Of a stretch of DNA of 64,000 nt, positions 40,231 to 58,442 are shown piece after piece. The notes under the pieces were generated by a model. That model made no database searches and had not been told where the DNA came from. It was given only the letters and a program-made list of their open reading frames with translations. This stretch comes from an uncultured Desulfobacteraceae bacterium (lineage in GTDB: Bacteria > Desulfobacterota > Desulfobacteria > Desulfobacterales > UBA5852). Where the stretch lies: contig CALNZV010000020.1 in NCBI GenBank assembly GCA_942491115.1, forward strand, positions 1,149,107-1,213,106. The letters run 5' to 3'. The translations under genes and the position numbers were made by a program. Numbering within the stretch: the first letter of the stretch is position 1; every line of letters begins with the position of its first letter.

Positions 40231-42483
40231 TCAATACCCAACCATGAGGTTGATTCGAGAGGTCAGGTCTGTGGGCGCGTTCAACGGTTGTCCGTCGATG
40301 TCCAACACCGGCACCGTCCCCATCAGGGAATTGGTGAGAATCACCTGGTCGGCGGCAATCAGGTCTTCCGGCATGATCGTCCGCCGTCGGACGCCGTAGC
40401 CCTCCCTGACCAATCGCTTCACGACCACCGATGCCATGACGCCCGGCAGCGCGTGGGGCGACAGGGGAACCACCAAATCCTTTCCAAACAGCAGCAGCAG
40501 ATTGGCCGTATTGGTTTCCGAAACCGTGCCGTCCGGATTGAGGATGAGGGCTTCGTCGGCGCCTTCGCCCGAGGCCCACTGACCGGCCCTGAGGTAGTAG
40601 AGGTAATTCAAGGTTTTCCAGGAGGCCAGGGGACTCTGGCGCGGCTCCGGATAGGTGGCCAGGAAGAGGCCCGGCCGCTTGAGCTTTTCCAAGCGGTGTC
40701 GATAGGGTTTTGCGGTCACGAAAAGGCCGGGTGCCGTTTGGTGCCCGCTGGGGTTGCCTCGCGTGGCAGTGAGCCGGACGGCTGACAGTCCCTCCCCGAG
40801 CTGGTTGCGGTCGATGACCTGCTCGATGACGGCAGGCCAAGTGATATCCGGAAAGCGTTCCGAGGCAAAGAGAGTCTCCCAGGTCAGCCGGAACCGTTTT
40901 AAATGGGCATCAAGATGGAGAGGGCGCCCCCGGTCCACCCGAAGGGTTTCAAAAAAACCGTTACCGTACAGCACACCCTGGTCCGAGATCGATATGGCAG
41001 CCTGCTCCACCGGTGTTAGCCGCCCATTGATCCAGACAACGGGGGATGATGGACGGTCTCGGGCTTCCTTGTCATTGAAGATACCCATCAGGGTCTTTCC
41101 TTTGTGAAGGGTTTCTTCGTATTCGTCCGCCGGGCAGGAATCGAACACGATGCCGCCTCCCACGGAGAAACACAGGCGCTCCTTATAGATGGTGGCGGTC
41201 CGGATGGCGATGGACAAATCGAGGGTGTCATGAAAACTGAAGTAGCCGATGGATCCGGTGTAGAGGTGCCGGCGGTCCGGCTCGAGTTCGTCGATGATCT
41301 CCATTGAGCGGATCTTAGGACACCCGGTAATGGATCCCCCCGGGAAGGTCGCCTTCAGAAGGTCCACCGAATCGGCATCGGCATTCAGGCGGCCCTCCAC
41401 GATGGACACCAGGTGGTAGACATTGTCGTAGGCCTCAACCTTTTTGTGGCGGGCGACGTGCACCGATCCGGCCTCGCATACCTTTCCGATGTCGTTGCGG
41501 AGCAAATCCACGATCATAGAAAGCTCCGCGTCATCCTTAGGGCTTTCCGTCAGGCGTTCTCGCATGGCGAGATCCGCCCTCTCCGTCTTTCCCCGGGGGC
41601 GGGTGCCCTTGATCGGCCGGGTCTCGATGCGCTGGCCGCGGCGACACAGAAATCGTTCCGGAGAGGTGGAAACGATCTGATGGCAGCCGGCGTTGACGAA
41701 GGCAAAAAAAGGTGCCGGATTGCGACGGTAAAGGGCCTTGAACAGGGCAAAGGGGTCACCTGAGAATCCGGTTTCGAATCGTTGGGAGACATTGACCTGA
41801 TAGACGTGGCCATCGGCAATGTATTCCCGGATGCGTTCGACAGCCTCCAGGTAGTCCGGGCGGGAGAAGTTGGATTGAATGGACTCGCCCCGGCAGCTGA
41901 AATCCTCTGGGGGGACGGGAACGTTGCGGAGCCGCTCGAAAAGCCACTGTTTTCGATGGTCGGCTTCCGACAGGTTGCCTGCCTCGGGAAGCGACAGCCA
42001 GGAGTGGCCGGTTTCACGATCGTTGACGAGGATGATCGACGGGGCGTACAGGCAAAGGTGGGGAAGTCCCCACCGGTCCACGGAGGTGCGAGGCAGGGTT
42101 TCGATCAGATCCTTCAGGTCATAGGAGAGATAGCCCATCAGGCCGGCCGATAAGGGCTGTCCCTCAGAAAGGGGGGGAGGGGCCTGAAAATGGCTCAACA
42201 CCGACCGAAGGGCTTCGAAGGGGTCGGCCTCGGTCTCGATGATTCGGTTTCCGGTATCGAGTCGAACACGTCGCTCCCACGCCTTGAGGGTCAGCCATGG
42301 CTTCAACCCAAGGATATCGTAGCGAGCACAGTCATGATCTCCTCCGCTCAATAGGTAAACGGTTCCCTCGGTGTGGGCCAGCCGATGGGCGGCATCGGTC
42401 AATTCCATCGGCAGGATCAGGGATTCTGTGCGGACGTTGCGGACGGGAGGCAGCATCGAAATGAACCGTGACAGAGCCCCCAT
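40231..42483 (-). CDS. pabB: fused aminodeoxychorismate synthase component I / aminodeoxychorismate lyase (PabB-PabC)
   Basis: 750 aa. The N-terminal ~460 aa is a chorismate-binding enzyme (FPGGSITGCPKIRSMEIIDELE, YTGSIGYF). The C-terminal ~270 aa is a class IV aminotransferase fold (GVLYGNGFFETLR...LNGTVSETNTANLLL). Confidence 0.8.
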   Translation of the reverse strand: MGALSRFISMLPPVRNVRTESLILPMELTDAAHRLAHTEGTVYLLSGGDHDCARYDILGLKPWLTLKAWERRVRLDTGNRIIETEADPFEALRSVLSHFQAPPPLSEGQPLSAGLMGYLSYDLKDLIETLPRTSVDRWGLPHLCLYAPSIILVNDRETGHSWLSLPEAGNLSEADHRKQWLFERLRNVPVPPEDFSCRGESIQSNFSRPDYLEAVERIREYIADGHVYQVNVSQRFETGFSGDPFALFKALYRRNPAPFFAFVNAGCHQIVSTSPERFLCRRGQRIETRPIKGTRPRGKTERADLAMRERLTESPKDDAELSMIVDLLRNDIGKVCEAGSVHVARHKKVEAYDNVYHLVSIVEGRLNADADSVDLLKATFPGGSITGCPKIRSMEIIDELEPDRRHLYTGSIGYFSFHDTLDLSIAIRTATIYKERLCFSVGGGIVFDSCPADEYEETLHKGKTLMGIFNDKEARDRPSSPVVWINGRLTPVEQAAISISDQGVLYGNGFFETLRVDRGRPLHLDAHLKRFRLTWETLFASERFPDITWPAVIEQVIDRNQLGEGLSAVRLTATRGNPSGHQTAPGLFVTAKPYRHRLEKLKRPGLFLATYPEPRQSPLASWKTLNYLYYLRAGQWASGEGADEALILNPDGTVSETNTANLLLLFGKDLVVPLSPHALPGVMASVVVKRLVREGYGVRRRTIMPEDLIAADQVILTNSLMGTVPVLDIDGQPLNAPTDLTSRINLMVGY

Positions 42484-42486
42484 GGG

Positions 42487-43086
42487 TTATACTCCAGCCC
42501 CGAGGGGGCCCAGTTGTAGAAAATTGTCGATGATCCGATGGCCGTTTTCCGTTAGAAAGCTTTCGGGGTGGAACTGAACCCCATGAAGGGGGAAGTCCCG
42601 ATGGGAGAGGCCCATCACCACCCCGTCACTGCTGCGGGCCGTTATTTCCATGGCATCGGAAACGTCGACGGCTGCGAGAGAATGATATCGGGCCGCCTTG
42701 AATGGACTGGGCACGCCGGCGAAGATCCCCGAAGCGGAGTGAGTGACGGCACTCGTTTTACCATGAACCGGAATCGGAGCCCTGACCGTCCGACCGCCGA
42801 ACGCCTCGTTCATGCACTGAAGCCCAAGACAGACCCCCATCACGGGTATCTGGCGGTGGAACGTCCGAATCAGAGGAATGGAAATGCCGGCGTGGCTGGG
42901 GTTTTTGGGGCCTGGGCTGATCAACAGGTAGTGGGGGAAATGGGCTTCCGCCTCCCCCAGGGTGAGGGCGTCGCTTCGGTAGACCCGGATGTCCAAGGGG
43001 TAGGCCATGAACATCTGGACCAAATTATAGGTAAAGGAATCGTAATTGTCGATGACCAGAAGTCGAAACACCCTAGCCTCCGCCAT
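42487..43086 (-). CDS. pabA: aminodeoxychorismate/anthranilate synthase component II (glutamine amidotransferase)
   Basis: VIDNYDSFTYNLV, nucleophile block GVCLGLQC, GVQFHPES. ATG at 43086 (the ORF track starts one codon earlier at a TTG). Confidence 0.85.
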   Translation of the reverse strand: MAEARVFRLLVIDNYDSFTYNLVQMFMAYPLDIRVYRSDALTLGEAEAHFPHYLLISPGPKNPSHAGISIPLIRTFHRQIPVMGVCLGLQCMNEAFGGRTVRAPIPVHGKTSAVTHSASGIFAGVPSPFKAARYHSLAAVDVSDAMEITARSSDGVVMGLSHRDFPLHGVQFHPESFLTENGHRIIDNFLQLGPLGAGV

Positions 43087-43109
43087 CAAGCCCTTGCTTC
43101 GGGGTGCCT

Positions 43110-43153
43110 AAAAAAAGCAGGCGTCACCCTTCTTGAGTCTGGGTGGCGCCTGC
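43110..43153 (-). terminator. intrinsic terminator inside the pabA 5' leader
   Basis: On the - strand: GCAGGCGCCACCC agactcaagaa GGGTGACGCCTGC (12 of 13 bp paired) followed by T7. The U-tract ends 23 nt upstream of the pabA ATG, on the same strand as pabA. Confidence 0.7.
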
Positions 43154-43404
43154 CTGACATAACTCAATATATCGATGACACAGATGGACTGCATCCACGT
43201 CGACGGTATTGTTGGATGGATGTAGCGCAATTTATTCACCGGGTCAAGACGGATGCCGGGCTGCTTGCAATACCCTGTCGAACGCCATATAAAGGCGCAA
43301 GTCTGCATCCGGGCGGTGATGATCCCCCATGGGGCTCTCAGCCCTGCCCCGAGACCATGTTCACGCTTTTTTGAAGCTCCGGAGCGAAAAGGATAGACAG
43401 GAGG

Positions 43405-44772
43405 ATGGGAAAATCCAGGCGCCGCCAACGCCGGCAGTCCCAAGACCGGTTCTTGATGGCTCTGGTAGCCAACCGTGACGGGGAAATTTACGAACTGGAG
43501 GGTTTCGCAGCCGTCGGCAGGGATGGACCCCTGATGGAACCGTTGTCTCTGGAGTCCACCATTCCCACACCCCATGGGTCGGAGATCATGTGGCTGCCGG
43601 ACCGTCGGCCCATCGTTTTTGATGTGGAGACCCGTCAATTCGTCGTATTGGAAGAAGACCCCTACCGTACCGGGTCGCCGGTCTATCCGGTTGCGGCGTT
43701 CAATTCTCCCGGATACGTGACGACCCATGTGTCGGCATACAGGGAGACGGGGGACGCTGCCGCGCTGCCGCTGTTTTCCTACGGAGCGGTCGGTTGGCGT
43801 GGTGACAGCTTCCGGTCGACCGTGATCCAGGTGGACCGGGAACCCCGACAGGATCTCCGATTCATGGATCCGTCCGATGTGGAAAAGGGGATCCGGCGGA
43901 TTCGTCGCGAACTGCCCGGCAATCGCCTTCGGGTCCATCTTGAAAAATGCGCCTTGACCTATGGTTGTCCGGCGGGGAAAAATTTCTTTCTGGGTCGCTA
44001 CGAAGCGCCCCTGCCAACCTCCAGAAGCTGCAATGCCCGGTGCCTGGGCTGCCTGTCCTTTCAGGAAAACAGCCTCATTCGGAGCAGCCAGGATCGAATC
44101 GATTTCACCCCGACACCCGATGAAATTGCCGGCGTGGCCCTGACTCACCTTCGGCGGGTCCCCGGCGGGGTGGTGAGTTTCGGCCAGGGATGCGAGGGAG
44201 ACCCCTTGCTGGCGGCCCATGTCATCGAACCCGCGATCCGCAGGATCCGATCGGTATGCCCTCGGGGAACCATCAATATGAACACTAACGCCAGCCGACC
44301 GGATGTGGTGGCATCATTGTTCGAGGCCGGGCTGGACAGCATGCGCGTCAGCCTGAACAGCATAAGAAAAGCCTGTTACGATGCGTATTTTCAGCCCAAC
44401 GGCTACGGTTTTACTGATGTGCTGGCCTCCATCGACCGGGCCATGGCTGCAGGCGGTGCGGTATCACTGAACTACCTCAATCAGCCGGGGGTCACGGACA
44501 CCCCGGAGGAGCGGGACGCCCTCTTTCGATTTCTGGATCGATACCCTGTGCACATGATTCAGTGGCGGAATCTCAACTACGATCCCGTCCGCTACCTGAA
44601 TGCCATGAAGACGGTGGCACCGTTGGGGACTCCGGTCGGTATGGCACGTCTTCTGAACGACATCCGGAAACGGTATCCGGGCCTTATTTTCGGTTATTTC
44701 AATCCGACCAGGGAAACCCTGGCATCGGTCCCCGGCGGGCAGTTGCCGCACCGGAACGATGAGGGGCGGTGA
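43405..44772 (+). CDS. radical SAM protein with an uncharacterised N-terminal domain
   Basis: 455 aa. CX3CX2C cluster motif SCNARCLGC about 210 aa from the N-terminus. Downstream blocks GQGCEGDPLL and NMNTNASRPD. Start uncertain (43405 or 43456). Confidence 0.75.
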   Translation: MGKSRRRQRRQSQDRFLMALVANRDGEIYELEGFAAVGRDGPLMEPLSLESTIPTPHGSEIMWLPDRRPIVFDVETRQFVVLEEDPYRTGSPVYPVAAFNSPGYVTTHVSAYRETGDAAALPLFSYGAVGWRGDSFRSTVIQVDREPRQDLRFMDPSDVEKGIRRIRRELPGNRLRVHLEKCALTYGCPAGKNFFLGRYEAPLPTSRSCNARCLGCLSFQENSLIRSSQDRIDFTPTPDEIAGVALTHLRRVPGGVVSFGQGCEGDPLLAAHVIEPAIRRIRSVCPRGTINMNTNASRPDVVASLFEAGLDSMRVSLNSIRKACYDAYFQPNGYGFTDVLASIDRAMAAGGAVSLNYLNQPGVTDTPEERDALFRFLDRYPVHMIQWRNLNYDPVRYLNAMKTVAPLGTPVGMARLLNDIRKRYPGLIFGYFNPTRETLASVPGGQLPHRNDEGR

Positions 44773-44807
44773 GCATCCCCACCCAAAGAAAGGCCGGTTG
44801 ACGACCG

Positions 44808-45728
44808 ATGACCTGGATCGAATGTAAAGTGACCTATGACAGCAGCCCGACAGTGGCTGCGGCGGAACTTATCGCTGATATTTTCTACCAGTTCGGGGTC
44901 AGGGGCGTGGTGATCGAAGACCCGGACGAGCCGGTTCCTGCCCACGATGCCGGGGTCGAGCTCAAGCCTCCGGAGGTTCATTCGGTTTCCGGATTCTTCC
45001 CCGGGGAATCGGACACGATCGCCGGGTTCGAAGCCGCCCTTCGACGACTTGCCGACAGGGCCGGCATACGGATTTCCCTCCGGTCCCGGTCGGTGGACGA
45101 GGAGGACTGGGCCAAGTCCTGGAAGGCCTTTTTTTTTCCTGAGAGGATCGGCTCCCGTCTGGTGGTCAAACCCAGTTGGAGGACGTTTGACGCTGCCGCC
45201 ACCGATCTCATTATCGACATCGATCCGGGAATGGCCTTCGGCACGGGAACCCACCCGACCACCCGCATGTGTCTTTGCCTGTTGGAACGCCATCTGAAGC
45301 CGGGCCAGCAGGTTCTCGACGTGGGAACCGGTTCCGGGATCCTGATGGTGGCGGCATTGCGCCTCGGCGCCGCCCGGGTGGACGGGGTCGATATCGACGA
45401 GACGGCTGTCGCCATCGCCAGGGAGAACCTGGACCGCAACGGGATATCGGAGGCGAGGTATCAACTGCAACGGGGCCCCCTGGCCGGCAGTGGTTTGGGC
45501 CCCTACGATATTGTCGTGGCCAATATTCTGGCGGAGGTGATCGTCGATATTATGGGGGATATCGGCTCGGTGGTCAGGGATGGGGGGCTTTTTATCGGAT
45601 CCGGCATCATTCCGGGCCGTCTCGACACCGTGACAACGGCGCTGACGGCGGCAGGATTTGTCGATCTGTCCACCGAAACCCAGGATCAGTGGGTGGCGGT
45701 TACCGCCAAACGCCATGGGGGGGGCTGA
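44808..45728 (+). CDS. prmA: ribosomal protein L11 methyltransferase
   Basis: 306 aa. SAM motif VLDVGTGSGILMVAALRLGA, FGTGTHPTT and DIVVANILA. Confidence 0.9.
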   Translation: MTWIECKVTYDSSPTVAAAELIADIFYQFGVRGVVIEDPDEPVPAHDAGVELKPPEVHSVSGFFPGESDTIAGFEAALRRLADRAGIRISLRSRSVDEEDWAKSWKAFFFPERIGSRLVVKPSWRTFDAAATDLIIDIDPGMAFGTGTHPTTRMCLCLLERHLKPGQQVLDVGTGSGILMVAALRLGAARVDGVDIDETAVAIARENLDRNGISEARYQLQRGPLAGSGLGPYDIVVANILAEVIVDIMGDIGSVVRDGGLFIGSGIIPGRLDTVTTALTAAGFVDLSTETQDQWVAVTAKRHGGG

Positions 45729-45788
45729 CCCACTAGTATCCGATTCCGACGCTTTCGTCACCGGCGCGATTTTACATAACGGGGGTCC

Positions 45789-46091
45789 GTGTTGTCGGGG
45801 ATACATGAAATACTGCTGATTGTTGCATTGATTCTGGCCATCTTCTTTTTGCCGCGTCTGCTGCCATCCCGAAAGGTCGTTCAAACACCTACCCACCGGC
45901 GCCGACCGATGCCTGGCAGCATGCGGCTGGCCATCGTGGTCAGCATCCTGTGGCCGGCAGCCATGGCCGCCTATCTTCAGCCCTGGCAAGGAGGTCTTTA
46001 CCGGTTTTTGTTCATCGGGCTTGGGCCAGTGGCCATCGGGTGGTCCCTGTGGTGGATCAAACGGGGTTTCCGGGAGTCCCGAAGATCTTAG
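45789..46091 (+). CDS. small hypothetical membrane protein
   Basis: 100 aa. GTG start after ACGGGGG. 3 hydrophobic segments. No recognisable family. Confidence 0.45.
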   Translation: MLSGIHEILLIVALILAIFFLPRLLPSRKVVQTPTHRRRPMPGSMRLAIVVSILWPAAMAAYLQPWQGGLYRFLFIGLGPVAIGWSLWWIKRGFRESRRS

Positions 46092-46094
46092 CGC

Positions 46095-49000
46095 CTAATC
46101 GGGATCGATCTTTCCCTCCAGATAGCGTTTCAGATAGCGCGCCGTATGGGACCGGCGGGTTTTTTCCAGCAACTGCTCCGGCGTTCCCCTGGCGACGATT
46201 CGTCCTCCTCCTCCACCTCCCTCAGGTCCGACATCAATGATATAGTCGGCGGCCCTGATGACGTCCATGTTGTGTTCGATCACCGCCACCGTGTTGTCTC
46301 GATCCACTAAATCCTGAAGAACCGTCAGCAATAGCTCCACATCGGAGCGATGCAGTCCGGTGGTGGGTTCATCCAGGACGAAAAAGGTATGTCCGGAACC
46401 GGGGGCTGCCAGTTCTCTCGCCAGCTTCATTCGTTGAGCTTCGCCCCCGGACAGGGTCGGACTGGGCTGACCGAGTTTGAGGTAGCCGAGACCGATATTG
46501 CAAACGAATTCGACGGAGCGTCGAATGGCGGGAACGGCGCTGAAAAACCTCAGGGCTTGGGCGAAGGACATGTTCAGAACGTCCGCGATGGTCTGGCCGC
46601 GGTAACTGACGGCAAGGGTGTCGGTATTGAATCGGCTGCCTCGACAGGCGTCACAGGGAACATAAACATCGGGCAAGAAGCTCATTTTGATCTTTGGGTG
46701 CCCCTGCCCTTTGCAGGCTTCGCATCGCCCGCCGTCGATATTGAAGGAAAAGCGACCGGGCTCATATCCCCTGGACTTTGCTTCCGGCGTCAGGGAAAAC
46801 AGCCGGCGGATGTCCGTCAGGAAGCCCACATAGGATGCCGGCACCGACCGGGGGGTTTTGCCGATGGGGCTGTGGTCGACTTCGACCATCCGCTGAATAG
46901 CCGTCCATCCGGTTACACCCTGACAAGGCCCGGCAGCGTCCGAACGTCCCAGGAGATGGTTTCGGACATTCTTGTAGAGGGTTTCCTTGAGAAGGGACGA
47001 TTTCCCCGAGCCGGATACCCCCGACAGGGCGATCAGGCATCCGAGGGGAAAGCCCACACTGATATTTTTTAGGTTATGGGTTCGGGCATTGTGGGTGGTC
47101 AGCATCTTTTTCCTGTTTATCGGCCGTTTTCTCGAGGTGATGTCTCGCCGGCCCGCTTCAAGGAAGGCCCCGGTGACCGACTCCGGTGTCTGCTTGAGGG
47201 TTGCCACCGAGCCCGTGGCCACCACTGTCCCTCCCAGTTCACCGGCCCCGGGGCCGAGGTCGATGACGACATCCGCAGCCCGGATGGTCTCTTCGTCGTG
47301 CTCGACGACGATCACGGTATTGCCCCGGTCCCGCAGATCGGTCAGGGCCTCCACGAGGACGGTGTTGTCCCGGGGGTGAAGCCCAATGGTTGGTTCGTCC
47401 AGAACATAGGTGACACCCCGCAGATTCGACCCCAGCTGGGCGGCCAGCCGAACCCGTTGGGCTTCTCCACCGGATAGGGTGTTGCCGCTTCGGGAAAGGG
47501 CCAGGTAGGAGAGCCCCAGTCGGTTGATCAGGGAAAGCCTGCCGGTGATTTCGGCGACGACCGGCATGGCGATGGGGGATTGATCCACGGGGAAGCTGAG
47601 CCGGTTGAGTGTTTTGTCGAGATCGGAGGGCGGCATCTGTACCAGGTCCCAAATGGACAGGCCATCGATTTTCACCCCTAATGCTTCCGGACGGAGCCGA
47701 CTGCCTCCGCAACCCGGGCATTCCCTGAATGCCTCTTCGGCCCCGTCGGTCACCTCACCAAGACCGTCGCACGTCCCACAGGCGCCGCGGCTGCTGTTGA
47801 AGGAAAACAGCCTCGGATCTTTCGCCGTCACGCCGATGCCGCAGGTTGGACACACCCCATGGCGGCTGAAGAGATGGTCCATTCCCCGGTGGCGGACGAT
47901 CATGCTCCCCTCCCCCTGGTCCAGGGCAAGGCGGACGGTGTCGTCGATGTTGCCGCTGTTCGACCGGCCGATCACAAGCTCCACGGTGTGTTCATGATAG
48001 CGGCTGAGACGCATCCCGCTTTCGATGGGCAGGATGTCTCCATCAATACGGGCTTCCCGGAATCCGTCCTTGAGTGCCTTTGAGAAGATATCCTTGTGAA
48101 ACCCTTTTCTTCCAGACACTTTGGGCGCCAGGAGGTGGCCCCGTTTAGAGCCGAACCGTTTTCGGATCTCTTCGACCAGAGCGTCTTCGGAACGGGCCGT
48201 CAGGGGGCGGTCGCATCCCAGACAATGCTGAACCCCCAGCTTGCTGTAGAGAAGTCGAAGAAAATGATAGATTTCGGTCAGAGTGGCCACCGTTGACCGG
48301 CGGCTCGAGTGGCTGACCCGCTGCTCGATGGCGACGGTCGGGGCGAGGCCGGTGACTAAATCCACATCGGGGCGCTCCAGTATTTTCATATACTGACGGA
48401 CGTAGGGGGCAAGACTTTCCAGGTATCGGCGTTGGCCTTCTGCAAAAACGATGTCGAAGGCCAGTGTCGATTTGCCGGAGCCTGACACACCGGTGAGAGC
48501 CACGAACCGCTGATGGGGGATGTCCAGGCTGATATTTTTAAGGTTGTGCTCCCGGGCGCCGTTGATGGAGATGACGGCGCCCGCCTTTCCGAAGTCTGCC
48601 GTTGTCTCCCGCACTTCTCCCGTGGTGGCCATGGTGAAGGGCTTTGGTTCCAGGTAGGACGACAGAAATGCGCCCGTGTGGGATTCGGGCGCCGTAACCA
48701 GAGCTTCGGGGGGCCCAACGGCGACGACAGTCCCCCCTTTGTTCCCCCCTTCCGGACCCAGATCGATGACCCAGTCCGCCGCCTTTATCACATCCATGTT
48801 GTGTTCGATGACGAAAACAGTGTCTCCGGCGTCCACGAGGGATTGCATGGCCTTCAGGAGGGTGGCGATGTCATCGAAATGGAGGCCGGTAGTGGGTTCG
48901 TCGAAGATGAGCAGCCGGGTTTTTCCGGGGGAACCCTTCTTTTCCGACAGAAACCGGGACAGTTTGAGCCGCTGGGCCTCCCCGCCGGAAAAGGTGTTGA

Positions 49001-51410
49001 TGGGCTGACCGAGGCGGATGTAGCCAAGCCCCACTAAAGTGAGGGGGCCCAGGGCGGCTTCGATGGTTTTCCGCCCGCGGAACAGATCCAGGGCCTCCTT
49101 GACAGTGAGATTCAAGATGTCATCGACGCTTCTCTCCCGGTAGCGGATGGCCAGCACTTCCGGCTTGAACCGCCGCCCCCGGCAGTCGGGACAGCTGATA
49201 TACACATCGGATAGAAACTGCATCTCCACTTTTTCAAAGCCGTCTCCCTTGCAGGTCTCGCATCGCCCCCCGGCAATGTTGAACGAAAAGGTGCCGGGAC
49301 CGAATCCCTTTTCTTTTGCGTCCGGAGTCTCGGCCAGGAGCTGACGGATTGGGGTCATGGCGCCGGTATAGGTCAGAACATTGGCCCTGGGAGTCCGGCC
49401 TATCCCCCGCTGGTCCACCAGGGCCACCTCCGAGAGACGGGAGGTCCCCAGCAGACGGCTGTGAGAACCGGGTCGGCCCACGTCCGCACCCAGAGACCGC
49501 TTTGCCGCCTTGAAGAGGATATCTTCGGCCAGCGTGGACTTACCGGAGCCGGAGACCCCAGTGAGACAGACGAAAAGCCCCAGAGGGATGCTCACGTCGA
49601 TAGACTTCAGGTTGTTGGCGGCGGCGCCTTCTACCGACAGCCACTGGTTCGATCTCGGCTGCCGGCGAGTCGTCGGCACTTCAATCCGGCGCTTCCCGGT
49701 CAGGTAGCGGCCGGTGGGCGATCCATCGACCTGGCCGGTGGGTCCGAAATACATCACCCGACCGCCCTTCTCGCCCGCACCGGGCCCCATGTCCAAAAGG
49801 AAATCGCTTTCCTTTATGATTTCAGGATCATGCTCAACCACTACGACAGTGTTTCGCTGATCCCGGAGCCGCTTCAATATTCGAATCAGGCGTCGGTTGT
49901 CCCTTGGATGAAGACCGATACTGGGTTCGTCCAGCACATAGAGAGTGTTCACCAAGGAGGAACCCAGCGCCGATGCGAGGGCCACCCGTTGAACCTCCCC
50001 TCCGGATAGGGTTCTGGATTGTCGGTCGATGGTCAAGTACCCCAGTCCGACGTCCTGAAGGTAGCGGATCCGAGCCTTGATTTCATCGAGAACCATTCGG
50101 TCCGCATCGTCCTGGGGGAGGGCGCCCATCGCGTCGAAATAGGTGCCGGCCCGATCGATATCCATGGCATAGATATCGGCGATCGTGCGCCCGTTGATGC
50201 GGTAGAGAAGGGTTTCCGGCTTGAACCGGGTGCCGCCGCAGTCTTTGCAGACGTCGTAGCTGCGGTACCGGGACAGGAAGACACGCACCGGCATCTTGTA
50301 GGTTTTGCTCTCCAGCCATTTGAAGAAGCCCCGGATGCCATAGTAGTCGTCGGTTCCGTCGATGATCGAGGACTGATGCACCGTGGACAGGGAGTGGAAA
50401 GGGACATCGGTGGGGATCCTCATCCGCCTGCAGAAGTCCATGAGGTCGGTATACTCCACCCTGGGGCTGGCATTTCGGTGTCCCCAAGGTTTGATCGCCC
50501 CGTCTCGCAAGGAAAGGGATGGCTCCGGGATGATGAGTTCCATGTCGATGCCGATGGTGCGGCCGAATCCCCTGCAGGTATCGCAGGCACCGATGGGGCT
50601 GTTGAAGGAGAACATGTTCGGCAGAGGGGCGGAATAGTCCAAATGGCAACGGGGGCACTCCAGCCGACTGCTGAAGGACAGCTCGGCTCCGTCGACCAGG
50701 TAGACCGTCAAGCGGCCTTTTCCAAACCGGTAGGCCATTTCGATGGAATCGATGATCCGCTGGCGCTCATCGTTGCGGAGGACCAGGCGGTCTACCAACA
50801 CCTCAATGGATTCTGGCAGGTGTTCGGGGCTAATCTCCATGAGGTCGACAACGCGTCCGTCGATGTAGCATCTGTCGAATCCCAGGCGAACTAGGTGGCG
50901 CAAGGGGTGTTCGCCGCCGTCCGTATCCGGCAGCTGCGACGGATAGGAGAAGGTGATGATGGCACGGGTACCATCCGGCTGAGCGCTCAGGCGACGCCAA
51001 ATGCGAGCCGGGGTTTCCACCGTGACCGGAACACCGCAGGAACTGCAGTGCAGGAGCCCCAGGCGAGGGAAGAGAAGCTTGACGTAGTCGGTGATCTCGG
51101 TCATGGTTCCCACCGTGGACCGGGAGGTGCGAACCGGATCTTTCTGATCGATGGCGATCGCCGGGGGAATCCCTCTGATTTCCCTTACCCGCGGTCGATC
51201 CATTCGGTCCATGAACTGGCGGGCATAGGGAGAGAAGGTCTCAACGTACCGACGCTGGCCTTCCGCATAAAGGGTGTCGATGGCCAGGGAGGATTTCCCC
51301 GAACCGCTGACGCCGCTGATGACCGTCAACCGATTAAGGGGGATATGGAGATCCAAGTCCTTCAGGTTGTTTTGACGAGCGCCTATGATTTCGATGGATG
51401 GGACGTTCAT
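46095..51410 (-). CDS. tandem-duplicated UvrA-like excinuclease ABC subunit A (two UvrA units in one polypeptide)
   Basis: 1771 aa. Four Walker A sites ([10 protein letters not shown]), four LSGGE[AV]QR signatures, four EH(D/N) blocks and multiple CxxC zinc modules. The second unit starts at [12 protein letters not shown] (residue ~947, nt 48572). Confidence 0.9.
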
Positions 51411-51596
51411 CGCTACTCCGGGAGCGGTTCTGCCTCAGGGCTATGGGTGGCGGTTGTCATTGAAACCGGGGCCGGATTGCCGGCTCCGGCTTGACACGAC
51501 AGGGTGAGATTCGTCAAACAGAGGATATGATAAGCACCATAGGCTCGAATGACACCCGGCGGCATGGGGGTGCCGATTTTATTCATCGAGGGTTCC

Positions 51597-53009: not shown

Positions 53010-54065
53010 CTATGGAATGATATGGACGACTTCGGACGCGGGGACCAGACGAACCCGCTGGCGAAGTCTGGGAATTTCCGTCTTGAAAATGGAAATGGTC
53101 AGGGCGTGGGGGTGGGCGATACCGACGGCTTCTCCTTGTTTTTCAGCCGTTGCAGCCAGTTCTTTGAATTGTTTGCGGATAAAGTCGGCCTCCTGGAGAT
53201 GGTCGAGAAAGACATCCCTTTCGGCAAAGGGCAGCTGAAAAAGCCGGGCCGACGGCATGGCGACGGTTTCGGTGGTTGATCGGCTGTCGACGAAGTACAG
53301 GCCTCGTTTTTTCAATACCGTAAACACCTGATATATTTTAGAGGAATCCGCTGTGAGGCGTGAGCCCATGTGGTTGTTTACGCCTTTGATTCCCGGCAGA
53401 CGATCAAGATGTCGATTGAGTCGGGCGATGAGCTCGTCCGGGGGCATATGGCTGAGCAGTGCCCCAGGGCCGGGATCCACATTGGGATACTCATTGGGCT
53501 CCATGGGCAGATGGAGCATGATTTCATATCCCTTTTTTTTCAGTTGGCGGGTAATCGGGGCCAGAAAAGGGCTTTCTGGAAGCACCGAAAACGTTAACGG
53601 CACATCGAGATCCATAAAGGCTTCGGCAAGGCCCTGATCGTAGCCGATATCGTCTATGATAATGGCTACTTTTGGACGGGTGACAGGGGGCGATGGCGTG
53701 GCGGAAGGACGGGCTTTCGTGGTCCGGGACGGCGTCGGTGCGGCTTTCTTCCGAATGGGGGGCTTGGAAGGAATCTTTTTCGGGTACACTTCATAAACCA
53801 CAGGGGGCTTTTTGGCTACGGCAGCAGGCTTGGGGACGGCCGTCTCGGGACGATCGGGTTTTTTGAGTAGGAAGTGAGCGATGAGTCCCGTTGCGGCGAC
53901 CACCACCAGCAGAATGCACAGCGCCCCTGCCATTTTGACAAGGGTCAGCCCCAATGGCGCCGCCTTCACTTTTCGACGGCGAGGGCGTGTGACCTTTTTC
54001 TGCCGCTGTTTAGCGGCAGGCGGTGTTTTGGGCTTTTTGCCGGGGCTTTTCCTGGTGTTGGCCAT
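53010..54065 (-). CDS. divergent polysaccharide deacetylase family protein (YibQ-like)
   Basis: 351 aa. Lys/Pro-rich N-terminus plus a TM segment. VAIIIDDIGYD...LTFSVLP...MLHLPMEP...GVNNHMGS blocks typical of YibQ/DUF610. Confidence 0.8.
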   Translation of the reverse strand: MANTRKSPGKKPKTPPAAKQRQKKVTRPRRRKVKAAPLGLTLVKMAGALCILLVVVAATGLIAHFLLKKPDRPETAVPKPAAVAKKPPVVYEVYPKKIPSKPPIRKKAAPTPSRTTKARPSATPSPPVTRPKVAIIIDDIGYDQGLAEAFMDLDVPLTFSVLPESPFLAPITRQLKKKGYEIMLHLPMEPNEYPNVDPGPGALLSHMPPDELIARLNRHLDRLPGIKGVNNHMGSRLTADSSKIYQVFTVLKKRGLYFVDSRSTTETVAMPSARLFQLPFAERDVFLDHLQEADFIRKQFKELAATAEKQGEAVGIAHPHALTISIFKTEIPRLRQRVRLVPASEVVHIIP

Positions 54066-54162
54066 GGATACGAATCGCAGCAGGGCGCCGCTTTCTCATG
54101 GGGCGGAGAAAACGGCGCCGATGGGTCATTGAAATGACAGGCGGCGGTCGACGAGGATCCGA

Positions 54163-55482
54163 TCAGTTTCCCAATGCCTGGAAGATTTGGAAGGAAATCA
54201 GCACATCGAGGGCTCTCGCCACCTGGTTGTCGCGAAGAAGCCCTTCGACCTCAAGGGGGCTCACCCTGAATTCCATATCTTGAATACCCGTTTTCTTTTC
54301 TTCCTTGGGCACTTCGATATGGTTTTTCAAATCCCTTTCCTTCAAAAAGGCAGCGCTTTCCTCTTCGGTGGCGTCGTCAAGCTGTTGATAGATGACCTCG
54401 ATGTCGGGAACGATTCCTTCGGCTTGGATCGATCGGCCGGAGGGTGTGTAATAAAGGGCTACCGTCAGTTTGAGACCGGAGCCGTCCCTGAGGGTCTCGA
54501 CCGTTTGAACCGACCCTTTCCCAAAAGAGGTGGTGCCCAGAAGAATGGCACGCTTCTGATCCCTCAATGCCCCTGCAACAATTTCCGATGCGCTGGCACT
54601 GCCGCCGTTGATGAGGACCACCATTGGATACCCCCGTTTGACATCGGAAGGGGTGGCTCTGAAGACACGCGTGTTGTCCTTATCTCGACCCTTGATGGAG
54701 AGAATCACTCCGTCATCGATGAAAATATCGGAAATTTTGATGGACTGGTCCAGAAGACCGCCGCCGTTGTTCCTTAGGTCCAGAATCAGGCCTTTTAGCG
54801 GATTGTTTTCAGCTTCGATTTTTTCAAGAGCTTCCAGAAAATCCTCAGTCGTGTTTCCGGTGAAGTTGGTGATCCAAATATAGCCGTAGCCGGGTTTAAG
54901 GGTCCGGGCTTTAATGCTCTTCACAGGAATGACGTCCCGAATCAGGTCGAAATCGATCGGGTCTTGGGCACCCTTGCGCAGGACTGTCACCGAGACTTCC
55001 GTGCCTTTGGGGCCTCGCATCATTTTCACTGCCTGCCGGAGATCTTCGACGTCCTGGCCGTCAACTTTGATGATGCGGTCCATGGCTTGGATGCCGGCTT
55101 CGGCCGCCGGCGTTCCCTCGATGGGAGAAATCACCGTCACCATGCCGTCTCGCAACGTTATGTGAATACCAATACCGGTAAAATTGCCCTGGGTGTCGAT
55201 TCTGAGGTCTTCGTAGGCGTCAGGAGGCAGAAGTGCCGAGTGGGGGTCAAGGCTCTGAACCATTCCTTGAATGGCTTTTTCGATCAATTCCTTGGTATCG
55301 ACCTCGTCCACATATTTTTCCTGGATGATTTCGAGAACATCGGAAAAAACCTTCAGTCCTTTGTAAGTTTCTTCGGTGCTGGCATCCAGGCGGGATAGAA
55401 ATCCGGTCCCGACGGCCCAGATGACGACAGCACCCGCCATGATCATCCACAGCTTGGTGAAGCGCTTGGGGGGGTTCGCCAT
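54163..55482 (-). CDS. ctpA: carboxyl-terminal processing protease (S41 family)
   Basis: 439 aa. PDZ region, catalytic Ser block NGGSASASEIVAGAL and Lys block TSFGKGSVQ. Confidence 0.9.
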   Translation of the reverse strand: MANPPKRFTKLWMIMAGAVVIWAVGTGFLSRLDASTEETYKGLKVFSDVLEIIQEKYVDEVDTKELIEKAIQGMVQSLDPHSALLPPDAYEDLRIDTQGNFTGIGIHITLRDGMVTVISPIEGTPAAEAGIQAMDRIIKVDGQDVEDLRQAVKMMRGPKGTEVSVTVLRKGAQDPIDFDLIRDVIPVKSIKARTLKPGYGYIWITNFTGNTTEDFLEALEKIEAENNPLKGLILDLRNNGGGLLDQSIKISDIFIDDGVILSIKGRDKDNTRVFRATPSDVKRGYPMVVLINGGSASASEIVAGALRDQKRAILLGTTSFGKGSVQTVETLRDGSGLKLTVALYYTPSGRSIQAEGIVPDIEVIYQQLDDATEEESAAFLKERDLKNHIEVPKEEKKTGIQDMEFRVSPLEVEGLLRDNQVARALDVLISFQIFQALGN

Positions 55483-55492
55483 GTTAGTTCCT

Positions 55493-56893
55493 TTATCCTT
55501 TTTTCAACCAGAGCATCGGGTTTTCAGGTTTTCCATGATGTCTGACCTCGAAATAGAGTCCGGGGCCAGTCAGAGAAGCGGAATCCCCGACGGTTGCGAT
55601 GACTTCACCGCGATCCACACGGTCGCCTTTGATTTTGAAGGCGTCTTCGATATGGGCGTACAGGGTATAATAGCTGCCGCCATGGTCGACAATGATCATA
55701 TTGCCGTATCCTTTGAACCAGTCGGCAAACAATATCGTTCCCGGGGCCACGGCTCGTATCGGTTCTCCGCGGTCCGTTCGAATGTCGATTCCGCTTCTGA
55801 AGTTGGTGACATTATAGCGGGCATTGCGGTATGGCCCGTAGAAGTTGATCACTTTACCCCTAACCGGCATTTCAAGCAAGCCTTTCAGGGAAACAAACGC
55901 ACTGCCTACAGCCTTCTGCTCGTCGGCTTTTTGTTGCAGGTCTTCCAACATCCTGTTGAGCGCCTCGGCCGATTGTTTCAAATCGGCAACCGCGGCCAGT
56001 TCAAGGGATTTATCTGCCCGAATCATCGACAGAAGCCGGCTGCGCTCCTCGCGCTCACCATCGAGGGTTGTCAGATGCTCATTCAGTGAGGCCTCCAATG
56101 CTGACTTTTCGGTTTTTCGCTGGGCCAGTTCTGCAGCCACGGTTTCTGCCTGGAGCAGCTGGCGGACCAGTGCCTGGCGGTTTTCCTCGTCGTTTTCCAA
56201 TATGACGCCGATCGCATGCTGCCGCGCCAGCATCTGCTGGATGGAATCCGCCGAGGCCATGACGGGAAACGGCCCCAATCGCGACAGTTTGTAGAGGGCG
56301 GTCATGCGCTTTCCAGCCCGCTCTCGGTTGACATGGATTTGCCGTTTTAATGCGGCCAAGGTGGACGACTGCTCGTCGATAGATCGGTCGAGAGTCTCCA
56401 TGTCCCGATTAAGCCGATGAATGGCCATTCGATGGCCGTGGATCTTTCGATGAAGGATCTCGAGCCGTTGGGTGATCTGGGTTTCTTCTTGGCTGAATCG
56501 TTCGACGGCGGCTTTTCGTTCACTGATTTCGGCTTCTAGCTCGGCGGCTTTCTTGTTGAGGTCTTCAACGGAGGCATCAGGAGGGGGGCCGTCATCGATC
56601 CGGGGCGGCTCGGCAGAAAGGGCAACATAGTCGGGCTTGTTGAAGATGAAGCCGATTCCACCGTTGTGGGTGATCGCAAGCCACCGGCCCTGGGCGCCGG
56701 TCACCGCCACCGTCTCTCCCCGGCGAAGGACTCCCAAAACGCGGCCGCCAGGGTTGGGGGCTGACCGGACATGAATGCGCTCGGCGCGGATGGTCGCCTG
56801 TTGGCTACCGGCGGAGGCGATGGACCCGATGAAAACCACCAACACGGCGGTGGCGATCACGGTTTGAACTGCTGTTTTAGGGACAGATGACAT
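55493..56893 (-). CDS. murein hydrolase activator EnvC-like (SH3b + coiled coil + degenerate LytM/M23 domain)
   Basis: Signal peptide, then an SH3b-like segment (VRSAPNPGGRVLGVLRRGETVAV), about 250 aa of coiled coil, and a C-terminal M23 fold. The usual HxxxD and HxH metal ligands are replaced (RSGIDI, LYFEVR), as in EnvC. Confidence 0.8.
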   Translation of the reverse strand: MSSVPKTAVQTVIATAVLVVFIGSIASAGSQQATIRAERIHVRSAPNPGGRVLGVLRRGETVAVTGAQGRWLAITHNGGIGFIFNKPDYVALSAEPPRIDDGPPPDASVEDLNKKAAELEAEISERKAAVERFSQEETQITQRLEILHRKIHGHRMAIHRLNRDMETLDRSIDEQSSTLAALKRQIHVNRERAGKRMTALYKLSRLGPFPVMASADSIQQMLARQHAIGVILENDEENRQALVRQLLQAETVAAELAQRKTEKSALEASLNEHLTTLDGEREERSRLLSMIRADKSLELAAVADLKQSAEALNRMLEDLQQKADEQKAVGSAFVSLKGLLEMPVRGKVINFYGPYRNARYNVTNFRSGIDIRTDRGEPIRAVAPGTILFADWFKGYGNMIIVDHGGSYYTLYAHIEDAFKIKGDRVDRGEVIATVGDSASLTGPGLYFEVRHHGKPENPMLWLKKG

Positions 56894-57729
56894 CCCAAGC
56901 CTCCCAAGAGCATACTCGCGACAAAAATCAACCCGATGATATTCATCGGCAAAAAGCGGAGATTCAGCCATTCGCTGGTTTCAACCGTCGATACCAGCAA
57001 AGAGAACAGTGAATAGGCCGCGCCGATGCCGACCACTCCACCCAAAAGCCCCTGCAGGGTGGACTGAATGTAGAAGGGGGTAAGAATAAAGGCGTTCGTT
57101 GCCCCCACCAGGCGCATGATTTCCACCTCTTCGCGGCGACCATAATAGATTAGTCTTACCGTGTTCCCGACGATGAACATCGAGGCCAGTACCAGCAGAC
57201 CGACCATGGCATAGGCTGACAGCGTGAAAAGAGTAAAGATGTGAACGAACCGCCTGATCCAATGCTGGCCGAATTCAACGTCGGCGATCCCTTCGATGGA
57301 TTCCATCCGGCGGGCCAGAGCCTCTATTCGTTCCCAGGCGTGGGTGTCGGCCGTGATTTGAACTTCGAATGCGTCCGGAAGGGGGTTTTCTTCCAGGTGC
57401 TCAAAGATGGATGACTGGCGGCTCATGTCGCCTTTGAGTTTTTCCAGAGCGTCCTCCTTGGAGAGGAATGTCACGGCATCGACGCCGGCGATGCCCCGGA
57501 TCTCCTTCTCCATAGCGACATGGGCCTCTTTGCTGGATGTCCCGTCAAGGTAGGCCGTGATGCGAATCCCCTGCTTCCAGGTATCCAGAAGGTGACCGAT
57601 ATTGAGAATGAAGATACCGATAGACCCGGCGATCAGAATGGTCAATGCAACCGTGACCACCGTTACCAGATTCAAAAGCCGATGGCGCAGCATGTCCCGG
57701 ATCGCCCTTTTGACGTGCAGCAGGATCAT
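56857..57729 (-). CDS. ftsX: cell division ABC transporter permease FtsX
   Basis: ATG at 57729 forms an ATGA overlap with the ftsE stop. 4 TM segments with a large first periplasmic loop. Confidence 0.85.
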   Translation of the reverse strand: MILLHVKRAIRDMLRHRLLNLVTVVTVALTILIAGSIGIFILNIGHLLDTWKQGIRITAYLDGTSSKEAHVAMEKEIRGIAGVDAVTFLSKEDALEKLKGDMSRQSSIFEHLEENPLPDAFEVQITADTHAWERIEALARRMESIEGIADVEFGQHWIRRFVHIFTLFTLSAYAMVGLLVLASMFIVGNTVRLIYYGRREEVEIMRLVGATNAFILTPFYIQSTLQGLLGGVVGIGAAYSLFSLLVSTVETSEWLNLRFLPMNIIGLIFVASMLLGGLGCHLSLKQQFKP

Positions 57730-58442
57730 TGTCCCCTTGCTCTCAGCGGTTGCTGACCCTCTCCATGGAGATAGGATGTCGATTGGACTCGCCCGTGTTG
57801 AAGCCAAATCACCCTTCCCGGGGCGCTCAGAATCAGCTCTCGATCATGGGTGGCCACGATGACGGTGGCGCCATGGGTGTGGAAGGCCTTGAGAAGTGTT
57901 AGGATCATGGCGGCCGATTCCGGATCGAGGCTGCCCGTTGGTTCATCGGCAAGGATAATCTTGGGATTTCCCACCACGGCCCGGGCAACGGCCACTCTCT
58001 GTTGTTCGCCTCCCGACAGGGTCCGGGGCATGGCATTGGAGCGCTGTTCCATTTCAACGGTGCGCAGCACGCTGTTGACCTTTTTTCGAATGAAACGGCG
58101 ATTGCACCCTGCGGCTTCCAGTACGATGGCGATGTTGTCGAAGACGGTCATGGATTCGATAAGCTTGTAATCCTGGAAGACAATTCCGAATTTGCGCCGC
58201 AGCTGTGGAATGCGCCGGTGGGAAATGCGTGATAAATTCATGCCGTCGACGAGAATTTGACCCTCGGAAATCGGTTCTCCCATGTACAGCAGCTTGAGCA
58301 AGGTGGTTTTCCCGGCGCCACTGGGTCCGGTAATATACAGGAATTCGTTCCGGTGGATGTCCATGGTGACATCCTTCAATGCGGTGCTGTTCTGATACCG
58401 TCGATAGACATGGAACATTCGAATGATCGGGCTCTGGGTCAT
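57726..58442 (-). CDS. ftsE: cell division ATP-binding protein FtsE
   Basis: Walker A GPSGAGKTT, signature LSGGEQQR, Walker B IILADEPTGSLD. 238 aa. Confidence 0.9.
   Translation of the reverse strand: MTQSPIIRMFHVYRRYQNSTALKDVTMDIHRNEFLYITGPSGAGKTTLLKLLYMGEPISEGQILVDGMNLSRISHRRIPQLRRKFGIVFQDYKLIESMTVFDNIAIVLEAAGCNRRFIRKKVNSVLRTVEMEQRSNAMPRTLSGGEQQRVAVARAVVGNPKIILADEPTGSLDPESAAMILTLLKAFHTHGATVIVATHDRELILSAPGRVIWLQHGRVQSTSYLHGEGQQPLRARGQ

Follow-up and report, generated by a model that had tools for sequence, protein, structure and literature searches.

In bacterial nucleotide excision repair, DNA damage is sensed by UvrA, which ordinarily works as a head-to-head homodimer. In a 64,000-nucleotide stretch of DNA from an uncultured Desulfobacteraceae bacterium (contig CALNZV010000020.1; the whole stretch is called the window in the following), we found a minus-strand gene (46095..51410) whose single polypeptide product comprises two complete UvrA-like units and four ATPase sites. 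The first-pass annotation of this DNA had described the protein in the same way, and sequence motifs and structure alignments agree on this point. Whereas a canonical UvrA is a chain of about 940 amino acids that acts as a homodimer, the window protein is, as known from its sequence, a chain of 1771 amino acids composed of two unlike units. Comparison of these units indicates that the insertion domain and the canonical UvrB surface both reside on unit 1 and that unit 2 is the stripped half. Architecture, conservation, distribution and housekeeping neighbourhood of the gene are documented in the following. We infer the pairing of the units, the stoichiometry and the role in repair, and consider it reasonably probable that this single-chain protein constitutes a covalent pseudo-dimer with built-in asymmetry, which would load one UvrB. 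Double-length UvrA proteins are already known and annotated, and the window open reading frame (ORF) is nothing unusual within its family, which is large and annotated as a matter of routine. What appears not to have been described so far is the one-sided asymmetry and the stepwise way in which it evolved.

Architecture of the tandem protein

Unit 1 (residues 1-920; 48651..51410, minus strand, as for all other features of this gene) represents a full-length class-I-like UvrA. Over its entire length it aligned with chain residues 23-959 of B. stearothermophilus UvrA (2R6F) at an E-value of 2e-248, and this alignment covered both the UvrB-binding and the insertion domain. Unit 2 (residues 947-1771; 46098..48572) is a UvrA unit without insertion domain, which aligned with residues 5-284 and 382-915 of T. 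maritima UvrA (3PIH). Its start had been placed at about residue 947 and nucleotide 48572 from the sequence alone, and we found that residue 947 corresponds exactly to this position. The AlphaFold2 model of unit 2 reached a predicted local distance difference test value (pLDDT) of 78.7 and a predicted template modelling score (pTM) of 0.70, and the best structural matches of this model were UvrA structures (template modelling scores of 0.73-0.82). The units are joined by a linker (residues 921-946; 48573..48650), as first proposed, but alignment to the C-terminus of E. coli UvrA gave a size of about 26 amino acids instead of about 20. In a 51-sequence family alignment this linker is variable in length and its pairwise identity (31%) is the minimum of the entire protein. 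In a junction-spanning AlphaFold2 model of 1200 amino acids, the pLDDT values were as low as 34-38 at residues 922-939, and the linker is predicted to be flexible and disordered.

The insertion domain of unit 1 (residues 284-387; 50250..50561; Pfam UvrA_DNA-bind, 46.3 bits) is located between the CxxC pairs of zinc module 2. Counted from cysteine to cysteine, it comprises 109-112 residues in the 51 family members, and its mean pairwise identity amounts to 70%. At the equivalent site of unit 2, alignments with 3PIH and E. coli UvrA as well as motif reading identified a remnant of 12 residues (1219-1230; 47721..47756) between CGTCDGLG and CPGCGG, which in the family as a whole is short and differs in length (16-27 residues from cysteine to cysteine). 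The spacing given in the first-pass annotation (104 residues between CDTCRGFG and CKDCGGTRF in unit 1, 12 at the equivalent site of unit 2) was reproduced. The same holds for its conclusion that unit 2 lacks the insertion domain, since a clean deletion was seen in the comparison with 3PIH and Pfam UvrA_DNA-bind matched in unit 1 only.

A different picture emerged for the UvrB-interaction domain. The Pfam family UvrA_inter (cut-off 23.3 bits) was detected in both units, in unit 1 at residues 135-238 (50697..51008; 48.6 bits) and in unit 2 at residues 1075-1174 (47889..48188; 61.8 bits), where the assignment of a UvrB-interaction-like domain is also based on residue tables and on the confident fold of this domain in the AlphaFold2 model. 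For residue mapping, E. coli UvrA was aligned with both units, and the E. coli numbering is used here unless stated otherwise. R216 and E222 of the E. coli enzyme are the residues that have been mutated as UvrB interaction surface (PMC3025350). As conservation reference for the tandem proteins (n = 46) we used 22 ordinary single UvrAs from related loci of several phyla, and among these G173, R176, D205, R206, R216, D/E219, S220 and E222 were conserved in 20-22 of 22 sequences. Unit 1 retains G173, R176, D205, R206, R216, D/E219 and E222 in 45-46 of the 46 tandem proteins, and position 220 is occupied by alanine or serine. The equivalents of R216 and E222, which are R218 and E224 of the window protein and lie within the UvrA_inter domain of unit 1, are kept in 46/46 and 45/46 tandem proteins, and unit 1 residues R218, D221, S222 and E224 are invariant among the 51 family members. 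Unit 2, in contrast, lacks the equivalents of R176, D205, R206, R216 and E222. It carries N and R where E. coli UvrA has R216 and E222, and these positions, which are variable in the family, lie beside a five-residue deletion.

The unit 2 domain still contains the motifs GRKGFHK and ARIDG as well as H1141 (window protein numbering), and its signature K159, G160, D180 and H198 is fixed in 46/46 tandem proteins from three phyla, with the motif form RKG[FY]H...D...H. This degree of sequence conservation indicates that strong selection acts on the remodelled unit 2 domain. The first-pass annotation had regarded an RKGxH motif as hallmark of UvrB binding and had assigned the canonical UvrB-binding domain to unit 2. 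However, RKGxH is absent from whole groups of ordinary UvrAs (Bacteroidota-type and Acidobacteriota-type), and the conserved surface residues are kept in unit 1 only, although both units carry UvrA_inter. Thus, unit 1 holds both the insertion domain and the canonical UvrB-binding surface, and the early assignment of the latter to unit 2 was not supported. The reciprocal domain loss postulated at that time must be given up: the insertion domain and the UvrB-surface residues have both been lost from unit 2, and the loss is therefore one-sided.

Each unit harbors two ATP-binding cassette (ABC) ATPase modules, and each module has a Walker A motif, a signature, a Walker B motif and an H-loop. The four Walker A motifs of the form GVSGSGKS(S/T), which had been recognized before, were found by motif reading at residues 33-41 (51288..51314), 618-626 (49533..49559), 974-982 (48465..48491) and 1464-1472 (46995..47021). 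The lysine of the first of them is kept in 48/48 tandem proteins, and the other three motifs were likewise followed in the tandem-protein conservation table. The four EH(D/N) blocks of the H-loops were also located as expected (residues 525, 868, 1369 and 1711). Four signature motifs are present at residues 468, 807, 1312 and 1653, as had been stated, but one of them reads FSGGEAQR and does not conform to the LSGGE(A/V)QR consensus given for all four. All four Walker A lysines, Walker B glutamates and H-loop histidines are retained in essentially all 48 tandem proteins, the sole exception being one protein (L027) with gaps at the last E and the last H, and the catalytic residues are invariant in the 51-sequence family alignment. 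In addition, there are 12 CxxC pairs, six per unit, which make up three four-cysteine zinc modules in each unit including the C-terminal zinc finger, and all 24 cysteines of these six modules are invariant in the 51 family members.

Conservation, spread and origin of the tandem arrangement

The ORF starts with ATG, comprises 1771 codons plus stop and contains no internal stops (0). A Shine-Dalgarno sequence (GGAG, 51416..51419, minus strand) was identified by direct reading 7 nt 5' of the start codon. The gene was defined by the ORF list with its translation, by an identical protein (P0001) encoded on a 1.34-Mb NCBI contig and by its scores against the NCBIfam UvrA equivalogs. The whole protein scored 2095 bits with NF001503 (cut-off 1147) and 2024 bits with TIGR00630 (cut-off 729.8). 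Single halves remained just under the cut-off of the former model (1042 and 1058 bits) and exceeded that of the latter (1004 and 1026 bits).

A long frame of this kind might be an assembly or annotation artefact, either because two adjacent uvrA genes were merged by a sequencing error or because a segment was duplicated. Near-identical nucleotide sequences of the two halves, which the first-pass annotation had named as the mark of an assembly duplication, were not found. The halves share 36-45% protein identity and are barely alike at the DNA level, with similarity confined to patches of at most 130 nt and 68-75% identity, and duplication during assembly is therefore excluded. The reading frame runs uninterrupted through the junction of unit 1 and unit 2. 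An uninterrupted double-UvrA frame was also present in 48 independently assembled full-length (≥1700 amino acids) loci from several phyla, which makes a frameshift or a missed stop at the junction very unlikely. Together with at least 120 protein clusters that share the unbroken frame, and with closed chromosomes included, this conserved continuous frame refutes the artefact explanation for practical purposes, and we assign it a negligible probability. The tandem UvrA ORF is a genuine, conserved chromosomal gene.

A survey of long UvrA homologues, as had been proposed along with the first reading, uncovered a large multi-phylum tandem family, so that the fusion is not rare. A search of 5.8 billion proteins yielded at least 120 protein clusters of matching length (all 1732-1805 amino acids) with 64-91% identity, and the named ones among them are called 'excinuclease ABC subunit UvrA' and originate from metagenome-assembled genomes (MAGs) of Desulfobacterales. 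In a species-level scan (one genome per species; full length defined as ≥1700 amino acids), full-length tandem UvrAs were present in Desulfobacterales and related groups (54-67% identity to the window protein), in Candidatus Binatia including closed chromosomes such as OZ244620.1, OX638322.1 and OY729511.1 (51-54%), in Verrucomicrobiota such as Akkermansia muciniphila, Chthoniobacter and Luteolibacter (42-47%) and in Latescibacterota (41%). When an exhaustive profile search was carried out with a junction-spanning query, more than 100 of the best 150 representatives of 50%-identity clusters were 1.6-2.3 kaa (thousand amino acids) long.

In a neighbour-joining tree built from single UvrAs and the separated halves, one clade contained the unit-1 halves and another the unit-2 halves of Desulfobacterota, Binatia and Verrucomicrobiota, each with 100/100 bootstrap support. 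For these three groups the tandem arrangement therefore arose once. The halves of the window protein fell into the respective clades, and only its unit 1 has the canonical UvrB-surface residues. A sister relationship of the two units was never recovered (0/100 bootstraps), and a simple tandem duplication was rejected as origin; the gene could have arisen by fusion of two already diverged paralogues or by fast divergence after duplication. In Binatia, unit 2 has a full insertion domain (107-116 amino acids, detected by Pfam); this domain measures 41-49 amino acids in Verrucomicrobiota, where Pfam does not detect it, and is reduced to 13-22 amino acids in Desulfobacterota. These lengths indicate that the domain shrank stepwise in this order. 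Loss of the UvrB surface in unit 2 is common to all three groups and is therefore older than the loss of the insertion domain.

Other multi-unit UvrAs were observed alongside this family. The halves of a Latescibacterota protein (L056:2851-8697, chromosome OZ244744.1) and of a 1766-amino-acid type (L041/L053) group with single UvrAs, and these proteins look like independent tandem fusions. In the Latescibacterota protein, both halves have a full insertion domain and the arginine equivalent to R216; the first half has D in place of E222. In L041/L053 the second half lacks the insertion domain and both halves carry the R216/E222 pair; the organism labels of these two loci (Alistipes, Senegalimassilia) look doubtful. 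Further lengths were 2334 and 2343 amino acids (P0136 and P0139) and about 1590-1616 amino acids (P0239, P0247 and P0257), and P0136 contains two strong UvrB-interaction domains, two insertion domains and about 400 additional residues. At an Akkermansiaceae locus (L024:892-8874, on a 2.1-Mb contig), the frame of the tandem UvrA stays open for about 700 residues further upstream without recognizable domain, which is probably read-through of non-coding sequence and not a real extension.

Proposed mode of action and genomic context

In the mechanism we propose, the two diverged units on their flexible linker would fold back on each other, so that a pseudo-dimer forms within one chain. It would have four working ATPase sites and, as DNA sensors, two C-terminal zinc fingers. 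Unit 1 would contribute the only insertion domain, acting as DNA clamp for damage discrimination, and the only docking surface of canonical type for UvrB and Mfd. Unit 2 would serve as support protomer, which provides the other half of the DNA groove, two ATPase sites and a remodelled domain at the former UvrB-binding site. As outcome, one UvrB would be loaded on one defined side. This mechanism fits the proposals made on the basis of cryo-electron microscopy (cryo-EM) of M. tuberculosis UvrA, which involve a division of labour between the protomers, an intermediate of two UvrAs and one UvrB, and coupling of UvrB binding to the release of the insertion domain of the same protomer (PMC11985968).

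Several observations weigh against this interpretation. The junction-spanning model reached a pTM of only 0.56, and the placement of the unit-1 fragment relative to unit 2 is of low confidence. The unit 2 domain has an invariant K, G, D, H signature of its own and could still bind UvrB or another partner. The window and the 3-kb flanking regions of related loci contained no second uvrA, no uvrB and no uvrC; since uvr genes usually lie dispersed over the chromosome, this is to be expected. Finally, ordinary single UvrAs of about 950 amino acids, which group with E. coli UvrA, occur in some Desulfobacterales and deltaproteobacterial MAGs (L061-L063, L065), and the tandem UvrA could therefore be an extra copy.

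These single UvrAs also speak for a different role of the tandem protein, namely that of an accessory paralogue which works without UvrB, as the class II proteins UvrA2, DrrC and Ecm16 do, and which clears intercalators or particular adducts, excision repair being left to an ordinary uvrA at another site of the genome. Class II UvrAs frequently occur as second copies, and Ecm16 acts without UvrB, UvrC and UvrD (PMC9328131). However, class II proteins lack the UvrB-binding domain, whereas both tandem units have Pfam UvrA_inter, and the retention of nearly all UvrB-surface residues in unit 1 (45-46/46 across three phyla) makes little sense without UvrB or Mfd as partner. Since the gene is also surrounded by housekeeping neighbours and not by an antibiotic gene cluster, we regard an accessory function as rather unlikely. 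Pairing might also take place between two chains, either of like units or in a swapped manner, which would lead to a four-unit assembly with two DNA-binding grooves. Length and flexibility of the linker permit either arrangement, and the uncertain placement of the units in the junction model is compatible with it. On the other hand, the covalent tether strongly favours pairing within the chain, and a unit 2-unit 2 pair would have neither an insertion domain nor a UvrB surface. The one-sided decay of unit 2, which affected the UvrB surface first and the insertion domain thereafter, suits a fixed heterodimer of unit 1 and unit 2. Pairing between chains is, in our judgement, quite unlikely, and we favour the intramolecular pseudo-dimer.

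For decades UvrA has been investigated as a homodimer with symmetric halves, but at the end of repair one single UvrB is present on one strand, and how the symmetry is broken is debated (PMC11985968). A tentative and somewhat doubtful extension of our proposal is that the tandem UvrA may be a natural hard-wired asymmetric sensor, which would mean that a dimer needs just one insertion domain and one UvrB dock, both on the same protomer, with one UvrB on a fixed side. If this is true, the protein would offer a handle on how the symmetric complex of two UvrAs and two UvrBs becomes the asymmetric pre-incision complex with one UvrB, and the sequence in which redundant parts became dispensable would be documented by the graded series of Binatia, Verrucomicrobiota and Desulfobacterota. 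In the tandem protein the halves can be distinguished, so that an ATPase site, a zinc finger or a docking domain can be mutated in one protomer only, which a homodimer does not permit. One member of the family comes from Akkermansia muciniphila, a gut bacterium that can be cultivated, and experiments are therefore feasible.

On one side, the tandem UvrA gene is neighboured by a pabB/pabC-like fusion, a glutamine amidotransferase gene, a radical SAM gene and prmA, and on the other side by genes for a DnaJ-domain protein, a polysaccharide deacetylase, an S41 peptidase and an M23 peptidase, followed by ftsX and ftsE. These are housekeeping genes, so that the region is not a biosynthetic or defence cluster, and a function as resistance gene of a biosynthetic cluster was rejected. 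The pabB/pabC-like gene (40231-43089, minus strand) encodes a 750-amino-acid fusion of a chorismate-binding (PabB-like) domain with a class IV aminotransferase (PabC-like) and adjoins the glutamine amidotransferase gene, with which it probably forms a compact module for para-aminobenzoate synthesis. The region 53010-58442 (minus strand) comprises envelope genes on the same strand, namely ftsE, ftsX, an M23 peptidase with SH3 domain (EnvC-like), an S41 C-terminal processing peptidase and a divergent polysaccharide deacetylase. Two ORFs without Pfam match (43108-44220, 370 amino acids, and 44694-45989, 431 amino acids, both on the minus strand) run antisense to the radical SAM gene (43405-44772, plus strand) and prmA (44808-45728, plus strand); they are most likely non-coding shadow frames in DNA rich in guanine and cytosine.

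Comparison with known UvrA systems

In the full-text literature we found no functional or structural description and no report on domain asymmetry of any tandem UvrA, although an earlier mention in older reviews is possible. The sole mention of a double-length UvrA that we found was the gene length of Chlamydia trachomatis ct333, which comprises 5361 bp, codes for 1786 amino acids and is annotated as UvrA (PMC6686042). CT333 is likewise a double-length UvrA, a comparison that refers to its annotated length only. The tandem proteins all bear the plain name 'excinuclease ABC subunit UvrA', which is a likely blind spot of annotation. The NCBIfam equivalog NF001885 (1809 positions), which we take to be the model of the Chlamydia-type long UvrA, was rejected for the window protein (1163 bits, cut-off 3054). 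The tandem UvrAs of Akkermansia, Binatia, Latescibacterota and of the L041 type scored 1190-1317 bits and thus also remained below this cut-off.

With class II UvrA (D. radiodurans UvrA2, 2VF7; Ecm16, 7SH1; DrrC), unit 2 shares the predicted loss of canonical UvrB engagement. However, class II proteins lack the UvrB-binding domain and have the insertion domain (PMC3167621, PMC9328131), and unit 2 shows the reverse, since it keeps the fold of the UvrB-binding domain and is devoid of the insertion domain. Class II UvrAs are, moreover, separate homodimers and are not fused to a class-I-like unit. Since members of this class have neither the UvrB-binding domain nor zinc module 1, membership was rejected for both units, in each of which UvrA_inter exceeded its threshold and zinc module 1 has its cysteines.

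Unit 2 can also be considered the natural equivalent of an engineered E. coli UvrA. When residues 290-400 were deleted from the E. coli enzyme, the resulting homodimer lacked both insertion domains and discriminated poorly between damaged and undamaged DNA (PMC3025350). The tandem chain, in contrast, retains one insertion domain.

Canonical class I UvrAs are known from E. coli, B. stearothermophilus (2R6F/3UWX), T. maritima (3PIH), M. tuberculosis (3ZQJ) and A. thermocellus (9GXK). Each tandem unit has the same layout as these proteins (a UvrB-interaction domain together with two ABC ATPase modules and three zinc modules), with E-values of about 1e-240 to 1e-250 per unit against solved UvrA chains, and unit 1 additionally shares the insertion domain and the conserved UvrB-surface residues. 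The tandem protein differs from class I UvrA in that it joins two units in one chain instead of forming a homodimer of chains of about 940 amino acids. Its second unit lacks the insertion domain and the UvrB-surface residues, and its asymmetry is encoded in the gene and not induced by the lesion.

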